32,030 nucleotides of DNA, from the IMG/VR virus record IMGVR_UViG_2778261510_000008. The stretch is one strand, 5' to 3'. Position numbers and translations under genes: made by a program. Positions 4,167-23,734 of this stretch are shown here, piece by piece (the first letter of the stretch is position 1; every line of letters starts with the position of its first letter). Source of the stretch: a virus (Duplodnaviria > Heunggongvirae > Uroviricota > Caudoviricetes). The notes under the pieces were generated by a model. It was not told the origin of the DNA and made no database searches. It saw only the letters and a program-made list of their open reading frames with translations.

Positions 4167-6420
4167 AGCCTCCGGGCGTTTTGTCCCTCCGTCAGCATTT
4201 GCCGCAGGCACCGGTAAGACGTTTACCGGTGCTTATGCATGGAACGCGCCACGCGAGGCTGTCGGGCGCGAAAGACCCCTTACACGTGACGAGATGCGTC
4301 AGGTGCAAGGTGTTTTATCCACGATTAATCGCCTGCCTTACTTTTTGCGCTCGCTGTTTACTTCACGCTATGACTACATCCGGCGCAATAAAAGCCCGGT
4401 GCACGGGTTTTATTTCCTCACATCCACTTTTCAGCGTCGTTTATGGCCGCGCATTGAGCGCGTTAATCAGCGCCATGAAATGAACACCGACGCGTCGTTG
4501 CTGTTTCTGGCAGAGCGTGACCACTATGCGCGCCTGCCTGGAATGAATGACAAGGAGCTGAAAAAGTTTGCCGCCCGTATCTCATCGCAGCTTTTCATAA
4601 TGTATGAGGAACTCTGCGATGCCTGGGTGGATGCGCATGGCGAGAAAGAATCGCTGTTTACGGATGAGGCGCAGGCTCACCTGTATGGTCATGTTGCTGG
4701 CGCTGCACGTGCTTTCAATATTTCCCCGCTCTACTGGAAAAAATACCGTAAAGGGCAGATGACCACGAGGCAGGCATATTCTGCCATTGCCCGTCTGTTT
4801 AACGATGAATGGTGGACTCATCAGCTTAAAGGCCAGCGTATGCGCTGGCATGAGGCGTTACTGATTGCTGTCGGGGAGGTCAATAAAGACCGTTCTCCTT
4901 ATGCCAGTAAACATGCCATTCGTGATGTGCGTGCGCGCCGCCAGGCAAATCTGGAATTTCTTAAATCGTGTGACCTTGAAAACAGGGAAACCGGCGAGCG
5001 CATCGACCTTATCAGTAAGGTGATGGGCAGTATTTCTAATCCAGAAATTCGCCGGATGGAGCTGATGAACACCATCGCCGGTATTGAGCGTTACGCTGCC
5101 GCAGAGGGTGATGTGGGGATGTTTATCACGCTGACCGCGCCGTCAAAGTATCACCCAACACGTCAGGTCAGAAAAGGCGAAAGCAAAACCGTCCAGCTAA
5201 ATCACGGCTGGAATGATGAGGCATTTAATCCAAAGGATGCGCAGCGTTATCTCTGCCGTATCTGGAGCCTGATGCGCACGGCATTCAAGGATAATGATTT
5301 ACAGGCCTACGGTTTGCGTGTTGTTGAACCACACCACGACGGAACGCCGCACTGGCATATGATGCTTTTTTGTAATCCACGCCAGCGTAACCAGATTATT
5401 GAAATCATGCGTCGCTATGCGCTCAAAGAGGATGGCGACGAAAGAGGAGCCGCGAGAAACCGTTTTCAGGCAAAACACCTTAACCGGGGCGGTGCTGCGG
5501 GATATATCGCGAAATACATCTCAAAAAACATCGACGGCTATGCACTGGATGGTCAGCTCGATAATGATACCGGTAGGCCGCTGAAAGACACAGCTGCGGC
5601 TGTTACCGCATGGGCGTCAACGTGGCGCATTCCGCAATTTAAAACGGTTGGTCTGCCGACAATGGGGGCTTACCGTGAACTACGCAAATTGCCTCGTGGC
5701 GTCAGCATTGCTGATGAGTTTGACGAGCGCGTCGAGGCTGCACGCGCCGCTGCAGACAGTGGTGATTTTGCGTTGTATATCAGCGCGCAGGGCGGGGCAA
5801 ATGTCCCGCGCGATTGTCAGACTGTCAGGGTCGCCCGTAGCCCGTCGGATGACGTTAACGAGTACGAGGAAGAAGTCGAGAGAGTGGTCGGCATTTACGC
5901 GCCGCATCTCGGCGCGCGTCATATTCATATCACCAGAACGACGGACTGGCGCATTGTTCCGAAAGTGCCGGTCGTTGAGCCTTTGACTTTAAAAAGCGGC
6001 ATCGCCGCGCCTCGGAGTCCTGTCAATAACTGTGGAAAGCTCACCGGTGGTGATCCTTCGTTACCGGCTCCCACACCTTCTGAGCACGCCGCAGCAGTGC
6101 TAAATCTGGTTGATGACGGTGTTATCGAATGGAATGACCCGGAGGTCGTGAGGACGCTCAGGGGCGCATTAAAACACGGGCTGAGAACGCCAAGTCATCA
6201 GCAAAGAAACGGAAGCCCATTAAAACCGCATGAAATAGCGCCATCGGCCAGACTGACCCGGTCGGAACGAATGCAAATTACCCGTATCCGCGTTGACCTT
6301 GCTCAGAACGGTATCAGGCCTCAGCGATGGGAGCTTGAGGCGCTGGCGCGTGGCGCGACCGTAAATTACGACGGGAAAAAATTTAGGTATTTTATAGTTA
6401 ATGAGTGGCCTATTTTCTAG
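4156..6420 (+). CDS. A: Replication initiation protein A (rolling-circle nickase), P2 gpA-like
   Basis: ~754-aa ORF; ATG at 4156 (MAVKASGRF...) inside the longer TTG-initiated ORF 4114..6420; size and position as P2 A. Confidence 0.9.
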   Translation: MAVKASGRFVPPSAFAAGTGKTFTGAYAWNAPREAVGRERPLTRDEMRQVQGVLSTINRLPYFLRSLFTSRYDYIRRNKSPVHGFYFLTSTFQRRLWPRIERVNQRHEMNTDASLLFLAERDHYARLPGMNDKELKKFAARISSQLFIMYEELCDAWVDAHGEKESLFTDEAQAHLYGHVAGAARAFNISPLYWKKYRKGQMTTRQAYSAIARLFNDEWWTHQLKGQRMRWHEALLIAVGEVNKDRSPYASKHAIRDVRARRQANLEFLKSCDLENRETGERIDLISKVMGSISNPEIRRMELMNTIAGIERYAAAEGDVGMFITLTAPSKYHPTRQVRKGESKTVQLNHGWNDEAFNPKDAQRYLCRIWSLMRTAFKDNDLQAYGLRVVEPHHDGTPHWHMMLFCNPRQRNQIIEIMRRYALKEDGDERGAARNRFQAKHLNRGGAAGYIAKYISKNIDGYALDGQLDNDTGRPLKDTAAAVTAWASTWRIPQFKTVGLPTMGAYRELRKLPRGVSIADEFDERVEAARAAADSGDFALYISAQGGANVPRDCQTVRVARSPSDDVNEYEEEVERVVGIYAPHLGARHIHITRTTDWRIVPKVPVVEPLTLKSGIAAPRSPVNNCGKLTGGDPSLPAPTPSEHAAAVLNLVDDGVIEWNDPEVVRTLRGALKHGLRTPSHQQRNGSPLKPHEIAPSARLTRSERMQITRIRVDLAQNGIRPQRWELEALARGATVNYDGKKFRYFIVNEWPIF

Positions 6421-6464
6421 GCTACCATTAATGTCGGGTTTAGATAATGCAATAATTTATTGGC

Positions 6465-6500
6465 AAGGTCTTCAGATTTAACTAAAGACCTTGTGTTTTA
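6465..6500. terminator. Candidate bidirectional hairpin between convergent genes A and the island gene
   Basis: 8-bp inverted repeat aaggtctt / aagacctt (6465..6472, 6485..6492) followed by T-rich gtgttttaattgtttt. Confidence 0.4.
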
Positions 6501-6540
6501 ATTGTTTTCTAGTCTTTTATATGAGCGTAAGTCTATGGGG

Positions 6541-8412
6541 TTACTGTGGTGGAGTCCATATTTTTAATGCGATATTTTTATATGTTTCCCCGCGTGCTGT
6601 AATAGCATTGGCGTTGAATTCAACATATTCTTCAAGATTGATATCGTTATTTGCAGATAAGAATCTTACCAGCTCAGGGTTGTTTTGATAAAAGTTTGCG
6701 CATAATGTCTGGCAAAGAACGTTTTCACCGCTATATACTGTTTTCTTTTCTGAGTACAACTTATCATTTAATGATCTGTTTCTTGAACGGGGAAGCAATA
6801 TCAAACCACCAATCAAGTTTCTCTTCTGCTTGTATTCAGTGTCAGATGAAAAACCGAAGGCTGATGAAGGCATGGTTGTATCATCAATTACTTCGCGAAG
6901 AACATGTTCTATATCAAAAGTTTTCATACCTTTGTCGCGTTGCATATAAACATCAAACCCTACTTTGTTTGTTAGGTTTATCTCGTTTTCAATGTAAGAG
7001 GCGATACGAGCCAGAATATAAAGCATATCTGATCTGGTTTTATTCTCGTACGCCATTTCTGGTATTCTATTAAGTAATGTATAATGCTTGTCCCATTCGT
7101 TTTGGACATAGCTTAACAATGCTGGATAATCTTTCCCTCTAACATCTTTAGCTAAGCTGAATGCAATATCTTTTAAATTGTCATAAGTGTTTGCTTTCTT
7201 CGATACGATTCGACTGGTGAGAATTAGATCAATATACTTAGATATTATTTGGATTTTTTTCTTACGAACATCACGGGTATCTGATAAATCTACAGAAGAT
7301 AGAATTATCATGGTTTGAAAGTTGAATTTTCTAATTCCATTATAGAAAACGTCAGGGTAATCAGTAGTCAGATTTTTCTCAGCATTGGCAATTGTCAAGC
7401 ATAAATTTGCATACTCGGGTATATCTGTTTTTGCAAAGTTATAAAAATCATCGGAAGTAATCAGACCGATATCATGGGTTTTATCTTCAAACCACCGATG
7501 ATAAGAATCATTGATTTTATCAAAATCACCAGGTGCATCGCCTTTATTTTTACCTCTAATAGTGTTTGCCCATTTAGCGCGTAATAAATTCCTGATAAAT
7601 AGAGAATCTCCCTCTGGATCTTTGTCTCTAAGTTTAGACATGGTTTTTACCCATACCTGATGGCATTCTTGACTATCTTCGGGGCTAGTGATTTTTGACA
7701 GAATAAAACCTTTTAATAGTTCAATTGCACCGAGTCTCAAGCCACGGTCATTCATTGTGACAAATACTCTATGCGCTTCTGACTCGCTTGAGACGGATAT
7801 ATCTATTAAAAGAACTTTTTCCATTAAATAATCAATAAAGAAAGAAACTTTTTCTTTTATTGTTGGATCCAAAGCATCCTCAATGGATTTTATTGCCTCA
7901 ATTATTCTTTTATCGCTATCACTAAGATTAGTAATGCTATCTACATCATCTAGTGCGTCTGCAAGACATTTTGCGTTGTCAGTATATTTTGTGAATATTT
8001 CTTTTCTAACTTCGGAAAATTCAATATTGAAATCGCGTTCCCCATAAGAAACACTCCCAATAAAATTTTCTAAAGCCAAAGTGTCTGGAATGTGGTTATC
8101 CTTGATATATCTTTCAAAAAAAACAAGAAGAATAAATATAGACGTGATTCGTTGTTGTCCATCAATCAACGGGCGCTTACCGTTGGTTTCAACCGCCGTA
8201 ATGATAGAACCAAGAAAGTATGGAGGATAAGATGATACATCGCGTCTACCATGAGTAGACTCATAACTCAGTAAGAAAGCATTTTGAATGTCATTTAACA
8301 TTTCAAGAAAATGCCTGCTTTCCCATTTATAATCCCTCTGAAAATATGGTAGTGAGTACTTGCTTTGAAAGCAGGTTTTTAAACTTAGAGTCGATGGGGT
8401 TATATACGCCAT
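6541..8412 (-). CDS. DUF262 (ParB-like, DGQQR motif) + DUF1524-like (His-Me finger) protein; candidate GmrSD-like type IV restriction / anti-phage defence protein in the P2 tin/old hotspot
   Basis: Long ORF 6541..8466; N-terminal motifs YFQRDYKW and LIDGQQRITS; C-terminal FDIEHVL ... NLIGGLILLPRSRNRSLNDK; AT-rich codon usage unlike the phage backbone; ATG at 8412 has AAGGA SD, ATG at 8466 has none. Confidence 0.6.
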   Translation of the reverse strand: MAYITPSTLSLKTCFQSKYSLPYFQRDYKWESRHFLEMLNDIQNAFLLSYESTHGRRDVSSYPPYFLGSIITAVETNGKRPLIDGQQRITSIFILLVFFERYIKDNHIPDTLALENFIGSVSYGERDFNIEFSEVRKEIFTKYTDNAKCLADALDDVDSITNLSDSDKRIIEAIKSIEDALDPTIKEKVSFFIDYLMEKVLLIDISVSSESEAHRVFVTMNDRGLRLGAIELLKGFILSKITSPEDSQECHQVWVKTMSKLRDKDPEGDSLFIRNLLRAKWANTIRGKNKGDAPGDFDKINDSYHRWFEDKTHDIGLITSDDFYNFAKTDIPEYANLCLTIANAEKNLTTDYPDVFYNGIRKFNFQTMIILSSVDLSDTRDVRKKKIQIISKYIDLILTSRIVSKKANTYDNLKDIAFSLAKDVRGKDYPALLSYVQNEWDKHYTLLNRIPEMAYENKTRSDMLYILARIASYIENEINLTNKVGFDVYMQRDKGMKTFDIEHVLREVIDDTTMPSSAFGFSSDTEYKQKRNLIGGLILLPRSRNRSLNDKLYSEKKTVYSGENVLCQTLCANFYQNNPELVRFLSANNDINLEEYVEFNANAITARGETYKNIALKIWTPPQ

Positions 8413-8571
8413 TAATACATCCTTTTGTCTGTAAAGAGCTTCTGTGAGAAGCGCATTATACTGCATTAAGCTGCATTAGTTTTCTACATGTTAATTGATG
8501 TCTACAAAGTAGATTTGACAAGTTTTTGAGGTGGGCGTGCACTTGCATTCAAACCGACCCATGAAGCGGGC

Positions 8572-8590
8572 GGGCGAGGCGGGGAAAGCA
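8572..8590. other. cos site: 19-nt sequence GGCGAGGCGGGGAAAGCAC matching the recalled P2 cohesive end
   Basis: Exact 19-mer located just past Q, where P2 cos lies; surrounded by GC/GT-rich non-coding DNA. Confidence 0.7.
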
Positions 8591-8733
8591 CTGCGCGCTG
8601 GCGGTGGTGCTGATTTTATTTTTTTAGCGTCTCAGCGCGTCGTGATGGCGTTTAGATTGTGCGCCGGGGCGTTAGTGTGTCTGCGGGGTGTTTTGTGCGG
8701 TGGTGAGCGTGTGAGGGCGTGATGACGGGGTGT

Positions 8734-8755
8734 AAAAAAGCCGCCCGCAGGCGGC
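8734..8755 (-). terminator. Rho-independent terminator downstream of Q (minus strand)
   Basis: GCCGCC-cgca-GGCGGC hairpin followed on the minus strand by a 6-T run (A-run 8734..8739 on plus). Confidence 0.6.
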
Positions 8756-8760
8756 GATGT

Positions 8761-9795
8761 TCAGCCGTTGTCAGTGTCCAGTGAGTAGTTTTTAAAGCGG
8801 ATGACCTCCTGACCGAGCCAGCCGTTTATCTCACGGATCCTGTCCTGTAACGGGATAAGCTCATTGCGGACAAAGACCTTTGCCACTTTCTCAATATCAC
8901 CCAGCGACCCGACGTTCTCCGGCTTGCCGCCCATCAACTGAAAGGGGATGCGGTGCGCGTCCAGCAGGTCTGCGGCACTGGCTTTTTTGATATTAAAAAA
9001 ATCGTCCTTCGTCGCCACTTCACTGAGCGGGATAATTTTAATGCCGTCGGCTTTTCCCTGTGGGGCATAGAGAAACAGGTTTTTAAAGTTGTTGCGGCCT
9101 TTCGACTTCACCATGTTTTCGCGAAGCATTTCGATATCGTTGCGATCCTGCACGGCATCAGTGACGTACATGATGTATCCGGCATGTGCGCCGTTTTCGT
9201 AATACTTGCGGCGGAACAGCGTGGCCGACTCATTCAGCCAGGCAGAGTTAAGGGCGCTGAGATATTCCGGCAGGCCGTACAGCTCCTGATTAATATCCGG
9301 CTCCAGCAGGTGAAACACGGAGCCGGGCGTGAAAGGTGTCGGCTCGTTGAAGGACGGCACCCACCAGTAAACATCCTCCTCCACCCCACGGCGGGTATAT
9401 TTTGCCGGTGAGGTTTCCAGTCTGATGACCTTACCGGTAGTGCTGTAACGCTTTTCCAGAAACGCATTACCGAACACCAGAAAATCCAGCACAAAGCGGC
9501 TGAAATCCTGCTGAGAAAGCCACGGATGCGGGATAAATGTCGAGGCCAGAATATTGCGTTTGACGTAAATTGGTGAGCTGTGATGCACGGCAGCACGCAG
9601 GCTTTTTGCCAGACCAGTAAAGCTGACCGGTGGCTCATACCATCTGCCGTTACTGATGCACTCGACGTAATCCAGAATGTCACGGCGGTCGAGTACCGGC
9701 ACTGGCTCACCAAAGGTGAATGCCTCCATTTTCGGGGCGCTGGCGGTCATTTTTTTTGCCGCAGGTTGCTGTGTTTTCCCTTTTTTCTTGCTCAT
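8761..9795 (-). CDS. Q: Portal protein, P2 gpQ-like
   Basis: 344-aa ORF, ATGA overlap with P stop, adjacent to cos; size and order as P2 Q. Confidence 0.9.
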   Translation of the reverse strand: MSKKKGKTQQPAAKKMTASAPKMEAFTFGEPVPVLDRRDILDYVECISNGRWYEPPVSFTGLAKSLRAAVHHSSPIYVKRNILASTFIPHPWLSQQDFSRFVLDFLVFGNAFLEKRYSTTGKVIRLETSPAKYTRRGVEEDVYWWVPSFNEPTPFTPGSVFHLLEPDINQELYGLPEYLSALNSAWLNESATLFRRKYYENGAHAGYIMYVTDAVQDRNDIEMLRENMVKSKGRNNFKNLFLYAPQGKADGIKIIPLSEVATKDDFFNIKKASAADLLDAHRIPFQLMGGKPENVGSLGDIEKVAKVFVRNELIPLQDRIREINGWLGQEVIRFKNYSLDTDNG

Positions 9796-21784: not shown

Positions 21785-22377
21785 TGAAACCTGTTTTTGA
21801 TGAAAATGGGCTGGCTACAGTGCCGGGCGATATGCGTTGTTTTTATTATGATGCTGAAACATCTGAGTATACGGGCTGGTCTGATGAATATATTAATAAT
21901 GGCGTAAGTATGCCCGCCTGTTCCACTGGTATTGACCCGGGCGAAAACATTCCGGGGAAAGTGGCAGTATTTACGGGTAAGGGATGGAGCCATGAAGAAG
22001 ACCATCGCAATGAGACTGTTTACTCAACAGAAAATGGCGCAGCTGTTACAGTGGATTATATCGGTGCCATCAAAAACGGTTATGTCACGCTTTCACCGTT
22101 AACGACATATGATAAATGGGATGGTGAGAAATGGGTGACAGATACTGAGGCACAGCATAACGCCGCAGTAGAAGCAGCAGAAGCACAGCGCCAGTCACTG
22201 ATTGATGCAGCAATGGCTTCCATTAGTCTGATTCAGCTGAAATTACAGGCCGGACGGAAACTGACTCAGGCAGAAACAACCCGACTTAACGCCGTGCTGG
22301 ATTACATTGACGCGGTGACGGCAACAGATACCAGCACCGCGCCGGATGTCATCTGGCCTGAACTGCCGGAGGCGTAG
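21784..22377 (+). CDS. Tail fibre assembly chaperone (gpG/U-like), current orientation
   Basis: 197-aa ORF right after H; C-terminal TSTAPD-x-x-WP motif shared with the convergent ORF. Confidence 0.75.
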
Positions 22378-22777
22378 GCCATTCAATATCGGGTGCTGTT
22401 GAAGTATCAACACGCATCAGCAGCACACGGTATTTCTTCCATTCGGTGAGAGTTGAAGTTTCTTCATCAGTTGCGATATCAGCATCAACAGCATCCTGAC
22501 GCCAGGATATTTCACTGTCAGCTTTTTCCCGTAATTGGGATTTTTTAACTTCAGCAATAGCTATTAATTCCTTTTTGGTCGGCTGAGGAATATCTATCAG
22601 TGCTGGTTTTCCATTCAGTGTTCCAATCTGTTTTCCTGGTGGAATATCCATAAATAACTTTTTATGTTCTTCCTCACTGACTATTACACCATCATCAGGC
22701 CACAGACCTGATGCCTCAAATTTTTCTTTCTCCGATATGGGGAAAAAGCCATTTGCTTTAGCGCTCCATACGTACAT
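22349..22777 (-). CDS. Alternative tail fibre assembly chaperone (U'-like), convergent
   Basis: 142-aa ORF ending in [15 protein letters not shown], like the + strand chaperone; sits inside the invertible segment. Confidence 0.7.
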
Positions 22778-22778
22778 A

Positions 22779-23086
22779 TCAATACCCCACCGCTATAATG
22801 TCCACATTAAATCCCCCGGGACCTGCCTGCCAGATGCTGGCCCCTGTTAATGATTTTGTTTGATGAACAACCGCCACATTTGCTGGCGATAGTGTTTCAG
22901 TTGTTACAGTACCGATATCATTCCAGTTAATTGAGATGGAATAGTTCGTTGTTGTAAACGACCGGGGGAAAGTTATGTGTCTTGCATTGGTGCCAACAGG
23001 AAATCCAAGATAAACACGCTGAATTATCATTCCTCCAGGTAACATAACCCAGTTAGCACCTTCTCCAAAACCAACGTTTATGAAAA
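22779..23086 (-). CDS. Silent alternative tail fibre C-terminal cassette (Sv'-like); expressed only after inversion fuses it to the H constant part
   Basis: Reading frame open from the right crossover site; encodes [14 protein letters not shown]... whose first residues parallel GLGEGA in H; no own start or promoter. Confidence 0.6.
23061..23086. repeat. Right recombination site (gix/cix/hix-like 26 bp)
   Basis: ttctccaaaaccaacgtttatgaaaa; its reverse complement ttttcataaacgttggttttggagaa aligns with 21315..21340. Confidence 0.65.
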
Positions 23087-23140
23087 TGCAGAAATAACGA
23101 GCAAATGGCATCATTCCTGCTTTTGTCAGAGGGATCCACT

Positions 23141-23734
23141 ATGCTTATTGGCTATGTACGCGTGTCAACAAATGACCAGAACACGGAATTGCAGCGTAAC
23201 GCGCTGGAGTGCGCGGGATGTGAGCGGATTTTTGAGGACAAAATCAGCGGCACGAAGTCCGACAGGCCGGGACTGAAAAAACTGCTCAGGACATTATCGG
23301 AGGGGGATACACTGGTAGTCTGGAAGCTGGACCGGCTGGGGCGTAGTATGCGGCATCTGGTCATTCTGGTTGAGGAGTTGCGCGAACGCGGCATTAATTT
23401 TCGCAGCCTGACGGATGCTATTGATACCAGCACGCCGATGGGGCGTTTTTTCTTTCATGTGATGGGTGCCCTGGCTGAAATGGAACGAGAACTCATTGTC
23501 GAGCGGACTCGGGCCGGGCTGGAAGCGGCCAGAGCCAAAGGTCGTATTGGTGGCAGACGACCGAAACTCACCGCGAGTGAGTGGGAGCAGGCCGGGCGTT
23601 TGCTGGCTGCAGGGGAGTCACGTCAACGCGTGGCACTGATTTTTGATATTGGTCTGTCCACGCTCTATAAAAAATTTCCCTCATCAGCGACAAAGAATAA
23701 ATTGTGTCATCCCTTAGCCAACCGGGACAAATAG
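23141..23734 (+). CDS. Serine DNA invertase, Gin/Cin/Hin/Pin family
   Basis: 197 aa from ATG at 23141; N-terminal catalytic motif GYVRVSTNDQ, resolvase fold residues, C-terminal HTH; next to the inverted-repeat sites. Confidence 0.85.
   Translation: MLIGYVRVSTNDQNTELQRNALECAGCERIFEDKISGTKSDRPGLKKLLRTLSEGDTLVVWKLDRLGRSMRHLVILVEELRERGINFRSLTDAIDTSTPMGRFFFHVMGALAEMERELIVERTRAGLEAARAKGRIGGRRPKLTASEWEQAGRLLAAGESRQRVALIFDIGLSTLYKKFPSSATKNKLCHPLANRDK

Follow-up and report, generated by a model that had tools for sequence, protein, structure and literature searches.

Ribosome-binding sequences and homologue starts strongly support translation from an ATG at position 8412 for the one gene carried between replication gene A and cos in a P2-like prophage of Escherichia coli. 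The 641-codon open reading frame in which this ATG lies would over-call the start by 18 codons, and the product would comprise 623 residues (1872 nt with the stop codon). The window, by which we mean the whole 32,030-nt stretch of DNA that was analysed, is a P2-like (Peduovirus) E. coli prophage, and the gene, hereafter the island gene, encodes a single-chain enzyme of the GmrSD family (DUF262 + DUF1524). Taking the account as a whole, we consider it probable that this GmrSD cargo starts at 8412 and is transcribed from a weak sigma-70 promoter of the −10 type, with TATAAT as its −10 element. The features on which this account draws are collected in Table 1.

Table 1. Positions of the island gene, its start region and the flanking phage elements in the window.
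Feature	Coordinates	Strand	Remarks
Replication gene A (gpA)	stop at 6420	+	converges with island gene
Hairpin, 12-bp stem	6464..6493	unassigned; T run on + only	between island-gene stop (6541) and gpA stop (6420)
GmrSD-family (DUF262 + DUF1524) island gene	6541..8412	−	623 codons + stop; Pfam, PADLOC, PGAP, fold
Start codon ATG, strongly supported (M19 of long ORF)	8410..8412	−	106/120 homologues begin here; 64/64 loci
Apparently spurious 18-codon 5' extension; predicted non-coding 5'UTR and promoter region	8413..8466	−	no Shine-Dalgarno; unshared by homologues
Shine-Dalgarno AAGGA	8420..8424	−	7 nt (8419..8413) before ATG 8412; duplex −6.3 kcal/mol
Third, degenerate box ATGCG, cos +135	8452..8456	−	overlaps TATAAT; ATGCA in three other E. 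coli copies
Candidate −10 TATAAT	8455..8460	−	6/6 match; predicted transcript start ~8446-8449
ATGCA box, cos +125	8462..8466	−	ATG = first ATG of long ORF; +125 (±1) in 83/105 unique flanks
ATGCA box, cos +115	8472..8476	−	phage backbone element; +115 (±1) in 92/105 unique flanks
ATGCA box, cos +43	8544..8548	−	inside conserved 55-bp cos core; 100/105 unique flanks
P2 cohesive-end sequence GGCGAGGCGGGGAAAGCAC (cos)	8573..8591	+	identical to P2 cosR/cosL
Terminator-like hairpin + T run after Q, equivalent to P2 tQ	8740..8755	−	P2 annotation at same place
Portal gene Q	8761..9795	−	same-strand neighbour upstream of island gene

The minus-strand frame 6541..8466 (641 codons) opens with ATG CAG TAT AAT GCG and reaches its internal ATG at codon 19. 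The original prediction preferred this internal ATG because AAGGA precedes it at a spacing of 7 nt while the first ATG has no Shine-Dalgarno sequence, and both parts of that statement are confirmed. Pairing with the 16S rRNA 3' end is predicted at −6.3 kcal/mol for ATG 8412 (from 8424..8420) and +0.2 kcal/mol for ATG 8466, and no such pairing was found at any other ATG, GTG or TTG between 8380 and 8530. A mini-ORF (ATG TAT TAA, 8412..8420, minus strand) opens inside the Shine-Dalgarno sequence, and its stop overlaps the start of the island gene as TAATG; it has no Shine-Dalgarno sequence of its own, is not kept in relatives and is probably due to chance.

The choice of start had been predicted to fall if homologues conserved the 18 residues upstream of M19; in the alignment those residues are unconserved and conservation begins exactly at M19. 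The comparison used the 120 best homologues (51-100% identity), which span Enterobacterales, Aeromonas, Pseudomonas, Burkholderiales, Acetobacteraceae and others. The N-terminus MA[YF][IVL] is present in 106 of these proteins, with a modal length of 621-624 residues. The 18-residue extension is absent from all 12 longer or differently started homologues inspected, the longer ones carrying mutually unrelated extensions before an internal MAY. In the alignment with the solved relative 9JFL, residue 19 is paired with residue 18 of the 623-residue form.

The same picture emerges from the genes themselves. A contig search with the single protein returned no confirmed relative and one with a 20-sequence alignment returned 80 loci, from which we counted the 64 whose tblastn match starts at residue 1 of the 623-residue form. 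These loci cover Proteobacteria, Firmicutes and archaea (the latter two at about 30% identity), and in every one the codon aligned with residue 1 is a start codon (63 ATG, 1 GTG). Upstream of it the frame stays open for a median of 7.5 codons, an in-frame upstream ATG exists in only seven loci, and a GGAGG-type Shine-Dalgarno sequence is evident in most. Relatives from six other lineages retain AAGGA, AAGGG or AAGGAA 7-9 nt upstream. The upstream frame is closed immediately in Dickeya, where a TAA abuts the ATG, and after nine codons in Cronobacter.

The island gene lies between gpA and Q and adjoins the P2-identical cos; the terminase gene P follows Q, also on the minus strand, and the G+C content drops from about 0.55 to about 0.35 across 6450..8550. 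Rousset et al. 2022 (PMC9122126) describe the gpA–cos–Q interval as a defence hotspot, as do Vassallo et al. 2022 (PMC9519451), and the accessible part of the supplementary tables of the former places DUF262/DUF1524 proteins among the cargos of the P2 hotspot. That part of the tables does not contain WP_001695619, and no discussion of start codons or ATGCA boxes was found in the accessible part of that paper. The content of the interval varies between conserved flanks: in other genomes the same site holds a BbrUII/HgiDII restriction-modification pair or Panacea/DUF2975 genes, and in P2 it holds old and tin. Partial matches to the query occur in 2151 of 5426 complete E. coli genomes and the entire island gene in eight; the partial matches listed all cover the cos–Q flank only, from about 8515 rightwards.

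Several other features of the prophage and its host records came to light. The hairpin between the stops of gpA and the island gene is probably a terminator for their converging transcripts; it is likely the early-operon terminator, perhaps working in both directions. A 63-codon ORF on the plus strand (8531..8722) crosses cos and is annotated as hypothetical protein WP_153071063.1 in strain 23CRST007; it is almost certainly spurious. Several complete E. coli chromosomes are rotated, their numbering beginning where the prophage gpA 'replication endonuclease' gene begins (NZ_AP045764.1, NZ_AP045771.1, NZ_CP116981.1, NZ_CP133453.1, NZ_CM188245.1, NZ_CP074028.1 and apparently NZ_CP101222.1), with the island gene always at 2386...; presumably an assembly-rotation tool treated gpA as a replication initiator. 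The tail-fibre genes are followed downstream by a second gene for tail-fibre assembly (Caudo_TAP, 22349..22777) and an inverted second tail-fibre C-terminus (Gp53-like_C, 22779..23114), adjoined by a serine recombinase (Resolvase+HTH_7, 23105..23734). Together, 22349..23734 looks like an invertible host-range switch of the Mu Gin / P1 Cin type at the position of P2 Z/fun.

Membership of the island protein in the GmrSD family is evident at the levels of both sequence and fold. Pfam GmrSD_N (DUF262, PF03235; a ParB-like NTPase domain) matches residues 35-255 of the 641-residue form at 4.4e-31 (109 bits, cut-off 33.2) and GmrSD_C (DUF1524, PF07510) matches at 1.5e-07 (31.8 bits, cut-off 23), while the PADLOC HEC-06 models match the N-terminal half only, at 9.7e-38. 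Across 20 aligned homologues the nucleotide-hydrolysis motif DGQQR (D84 G85 Q86 Q87 R88) is invariant, as is D500 I501 E502 H503, which contains the (D/E)H motif of DUF1524; in HEC-06, mutating DGQQR or the C-terminal EH motif abolishes defence (bioRxiv 10.1101/2024.01.29.577857). An AlphaFold model built on the 20-homologue alignment has a pLDDT of 81.8, and a Foldseek search with it against solved structures returned DndI (9JFL, 7.7e-11), BrxU (7P9K, 8.4e-06) and the SspE CTD (7DRI, 1.4e-03), with TM-scores that are low (0.26-0.42) because the domains are differently arranged. The domain matches, motifs and fold matches therefore identify a single-chain GmrSD-family enzyme. Residues 1-28 of the 623-residue protein (8329..8412) are among the most conserved of the family and yet have a pLDDT of about 30; to judge from BrxU and SspE, they may fold only in an intertwined dimer.

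No dnd or ssp genes are adjacent to the island gene, so its most likely role, judged from gene content, would be modification-dependent, Type IV-like restriction of modified phage DNA. A tblastn search of deposited phage genomes gave only three distant matches (23-26% identity), and thus no sequenced phage in that collection carries the island gene.

The DNA between cos and the island gene contains backbone elements of the phage. From 120 IMG/VR contigs in which the P2 cos is exact we obtained 105 unique flanks, and we scored ATGCA boxes by their distance from cos; in addition to the counts in Table 1, ATGCA is found at +134 to +138 in about 76 of the 105. The boxes are phased about 10 bp apart at +115, +125 and about +135, with another at +43, and by information content the flanks are conserved again outside the 55-bp core, in a second block from +113 to +131. 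They occur in P2-like contigs (with Q) and in P4-like contigs (without Q). When P2, the window, the Klebsiella relative and E. coli prophages whose cargo is unrelated are aligned from cos to cargo, ATGCA stands at identical cos offsets (+43, +115, +125, +135/137) and the DNA between +55 and +105 is unrelated. The offsets, with +135/137 wherever there is a third box, are common to P2 and to loci whose cargo is old/tin, GmrSD or BbrUII restriction-modification; the locus with Panacea cargo has boxes at +43, +125 and +137, and in the BbrUII locus L098 an 11-bp insertion shifts them.

Two observations concern the boxes in other elements. In P4-like elements the flank on their side of cos is conserved from one P4-like contig to another and looks more like backbone than variable cargo. 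In E. coli PEC41 (NZ_CM168023.1) an IS5 has inserted at CTAA just upstream of the +115 box, equivalent to 8476..8479 and 17 nt upstream of TATAAT, so that the −35 region is replaced and about 1.2 kb separates the cos core from the boxes; the GmrSD gene is intact.

A 55-bp conserved cos is common to P2 and P4, and longer flanks improve cosmid transduction (PMC9594776). It is conceivable, though we regard it as doubtful, that the boxes extend the P2 packaging signal as a second, cosB-like element to which terminase binds, with cargo promoters built into or against it. If it were true, terminase binding late in infection could shut off a prophage defence gene, and the boxes would also mark a fixed recombination boundary of the hotspot.

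Three lines of evidence make it likely, and we hold this with some confidence, that the island gene has its own promoter between cos and ATG 8412. First, the annotation of P2 places the starts of the old-tin mRNA 44-46 nt before the old ATG (cos +167/169), which is on the same side of cos and at a comparable distance. Second, directly after Q there is a G+C-rich hairpin, GCCGCCTGCGGGCGGC, followed by a T run; P2 is annotated at this place as 'tQ; putative rho-independent terminator for P operon', and late P-Q transcripts should therefore stop before cos. Third, the upstream neighbours of the gene diverge in other contexts, being those of a chromosomal site in Dickeya and of lambdoid prophages in Cronobacter and Morganella, so that there the gene must bring its own promoter.

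The best candidate for the −10 element of such a promoter is the TATAAT on the minus strand, 42 nt from its last base to ATG 8412. When the 160 nt upstream were dinucleotide-shuffled 5000 times, a perfect TATAAT fell on the coding strand 25-86 nt before the ATG in 1.5% of cases and a 5-of-6 match in 24%, so that the hexamer by itself is unusual only to a modest degree. The 200 nt ahead of the ATG hold no other hexamer that has A at position 2, T at position 6 and at least 5/6 matches. A sigma-70 scan called no promoter at TATAAT because no −35 with at least 4/6 matches lies 16-18 nt upstream: the best at 17 nt is AAAACT (2/6), and TAGAAA (4/6) is 20 nt away. A TGn extension was not found either, the bases before the hexamer being CAG; of the sigma-70 elements sought, then, the −10 is present and a −35 or TGn extension is not. 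Alternative −35 sequences picked out by eye (TTGTCA 8521..8516, TAGACA 8504..8499 and TTAACA 8494..8489) were rejected, their paired −10s lacking A at position 2. The predicted 5'UTR is no more structured than shuffled sequence (z = +0.95), and Rfam models identified no RNA element over 6300..8900.

Relatives give a mixed view of this hexamer. CAGTATAAT is kept in Klebsiella, and −10-like sequences occur in Morganella (CAGTATAAC) and Dickeya (CATTATAAC), the hexamers of these relatives lying 45-69 nt ahead of the ATG; CAGTATAA[TC] is kept in both the Klebsiella and the Morganella relative. A second, mutually homologous subgroup of P2-like cargos has CGATAGAAT or CGCTAAAAT, with CGATAGAAT at −45 to −51. 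No −10-like hexamer was found 45-69 nt upstream in Cronobacter, Enterobacter or the L225/L226 lineage. Upstream homology measured against shuffles is weak for the non-P2 relatives (z = 3.0 for Morganella, 1.9 for Dickeya and 1.4 for Cronobacter), and we accordingly hold conservation of the −10 outside P2 contexts less firmly. Since TATAAT stands between backbone boxes, its conservation in the P2-like Klebsiella relative may reflect the boxes and not promoter function.

In Dickeya dianthicola there is, 140-190 nt upstream of the gene, a possible decayed cos-like stretch (CCACCTCGCCTGTACACTT... compared with CCCGCCTCGCCTGCGCGCTT...). This copy is chromosomal, beside a Fic/Phd pair and housekeeping genes, and the cassette may have come from a P2-like phage, although the alignment is weak (z = 1.9).

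On balance we lean towards TATAAT 8460..8455 as the −10 of the island gene. The main competitor, which we judge unlikely although it carries real weight, accepts a promoter within 8413..8530 and regards TATAAT as a by-product of the AT-rich spacer of the boxes, transcription beginning elsewhere or depending on an unidentified activator. The lack of a −35, an extended −10 or a scan call speaks for this, as does the frequency with which shuffling yields 5-of-6 hexamers; the mapped P2 starts are not between boxes but about 30 nt past the third one, and in the second subgroup of relatives the −10-like hexamer is about 35 nt downstream of the boxes. Yet TATAAT is the only qualifying hexamer upstream of the gene, and the shuffles rarely produce a perfect one. 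Of the original prediction, then, the presence and the spacing of the hexamer stand and a promoter of the gene's own is likely; the equation of TATAAT with the −10 is the more tentative part, the hexamer having no −35 and lying inside a box element.

In the account we prefer, a weak sigma-70 promoter consisting of little more than a −10 would most probably initiate transcription about 35 nt ahead of ATG 8412, and this −10 would be the TATAAT wedged between the second and third boxes. The tQ terminator would shield the gene from the late P-Q transcript, and the gene would be expressed, presumably constitutively, from the prophage, as are old and tin of P2. Translation would begin at ATG 8412, with AAGGA 7 nt upstream, and give 623 residues, the 18 codons back to 8466 being non-coding.

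Alternatively, the gene might have no dedicated promoter and depend on the late P-Q transcript reading through cos, so that it would be expressed only in lytic growth. Q and P do lie directly upstream on the same strand, and the tQ hairpin is only a predicted terminator. We nevertheless find read-through very unlikely: the hairpin and its T run stand directly after Q, the hotspot genes old and tin of P2 are transcribed from mapped starts of their own, in three other contexts the upstream neighbours of the same gene are divergent, and a lysogen would gain no protection from a defence gene that is switched on only late in the lytic cycle.

Still less probable, in our view, is that the real product is the 641-residue protein from ATG 8466. 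The frame is open from that codon, and PGAP gives 641 residues (WP_497754409.1) in two of the eight E. coli genomes, those of strains 23CRST007 and 23CRST012; in a large protein collection the 641-residue form is called on 78 contigs. The majority annotation is already the shorter one, with the predicted 623-residue product called by PGAP (WP_001695619.1) in six of the eight genomes and the exact 623-residue protein present on 224 contigs of the collection. The eight copies vary only by A/G at 8467 and G/A at 8452, which is uninformative because neither change breaks the long frame. The longer start has no Shine-Dalgarno sequence, and the inspected homologues do not share its extension. The Klebsiella relative has an in-frame ATGCAGTATAAT upstream as well (the same ATGCAGTATAATGC, by chance also in frame), but only MQYNA, encoded by box and hexamer, is common to the two extensions, after which sequence and length differ (25 vs 18 codons).

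What decides against the longer form, in addition, is the origin of its ATG. Since the boxes stand at fixed cos offsets whatever the cargo, ATG 8466 is explained as a backbone element: it is the ATG of the +125 box, a cos-flanking box, and the frame merely happens to stay open from there. The original prediction had not recognised this codon as belonging to a conserved box. ATG 8466 also lies upstream of the likely −10, and with a transcript starting at about 8446-8449 it would not be in the mRNA. The N-terminal sequence diagnostic of the 641-residue form is MQYNALLTEALYR and that of the 623-residue form is MAYITPS.

We give almost no credence to an Ogr-activated promoter of the P2 late type (good −10, no −35, TGT-N12-ACA dyad upstream), for although there is a TGT-N12-ACA at 8506..8489 and a good −10 without −35 resembles P2 late promoters, the dyad is mispositioned (centre at about −50 from the predicted start vs −55/−56 in P2), is not enriched (4 in the window vs 8.1 expected) and is absent from the Klebsiella and Morganella relatives.

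The assignment of the start at 8412 implies that 641-residue entries such as WP_497754409.1 are over-extended, the cause being the backbone ATG in the cos-flanking repeat, and starts of other hotspot cargos may be over-called in the same way. This refinement is correct but ordinary and matters little beyond annotation hygiene. For practical work, cloning with the native promoter should include DNA at least up to cos, and a protein construct should begin at M19 (MAYITPS...). The fixed-offset ATGCA boxes are the only mildly new item, and they could help define the P2/P4 packaging signal and the exact boundary of the hotspot.

Finally, both the protein and its setting can be compared with known systems. 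The Type IV enzymes of the GmrSD family (Eco94GmrSD, BrxU, HEC-06, SspE and DndI) have the same layout as the island protein, DUF262 with DGQQR followed by a helical linker and a His-Me/HNH-like DUF1524 domain, and like it are encoded by one gene on a mobile element. Identity between the island protein and the solved members is only 12-16%. The best structural match, DndI, is the phosphorothioate-sensing partner of DndBCDE, and those partners have no counterpart beside the island gene.

With respect to setting, the closest parallel is the old-tin region of P2 (AF063097). Both cargos fill the same slot between gpA and cos, are transcribed from cos towards gpA and are lysogenic-conversion or defence cargo whose ATG lies 179-213 nt from the cos sequence; in both, ATGCA boxes stand at identical offsets and there is a terminator (tQ) across cos. 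The proteins are unrelated, P2 carrying the OLD nuclease and Tin and the window one GmrSD enzyme. The promoters would differ as well. In P2 the old-tin starts are at cos +167/169 and the −35 of Pold, TTGAAT, overlaps the third box, whereas in the window the sole good −10 lies between boxes 2 and 3, with a predicted start near cos +143.
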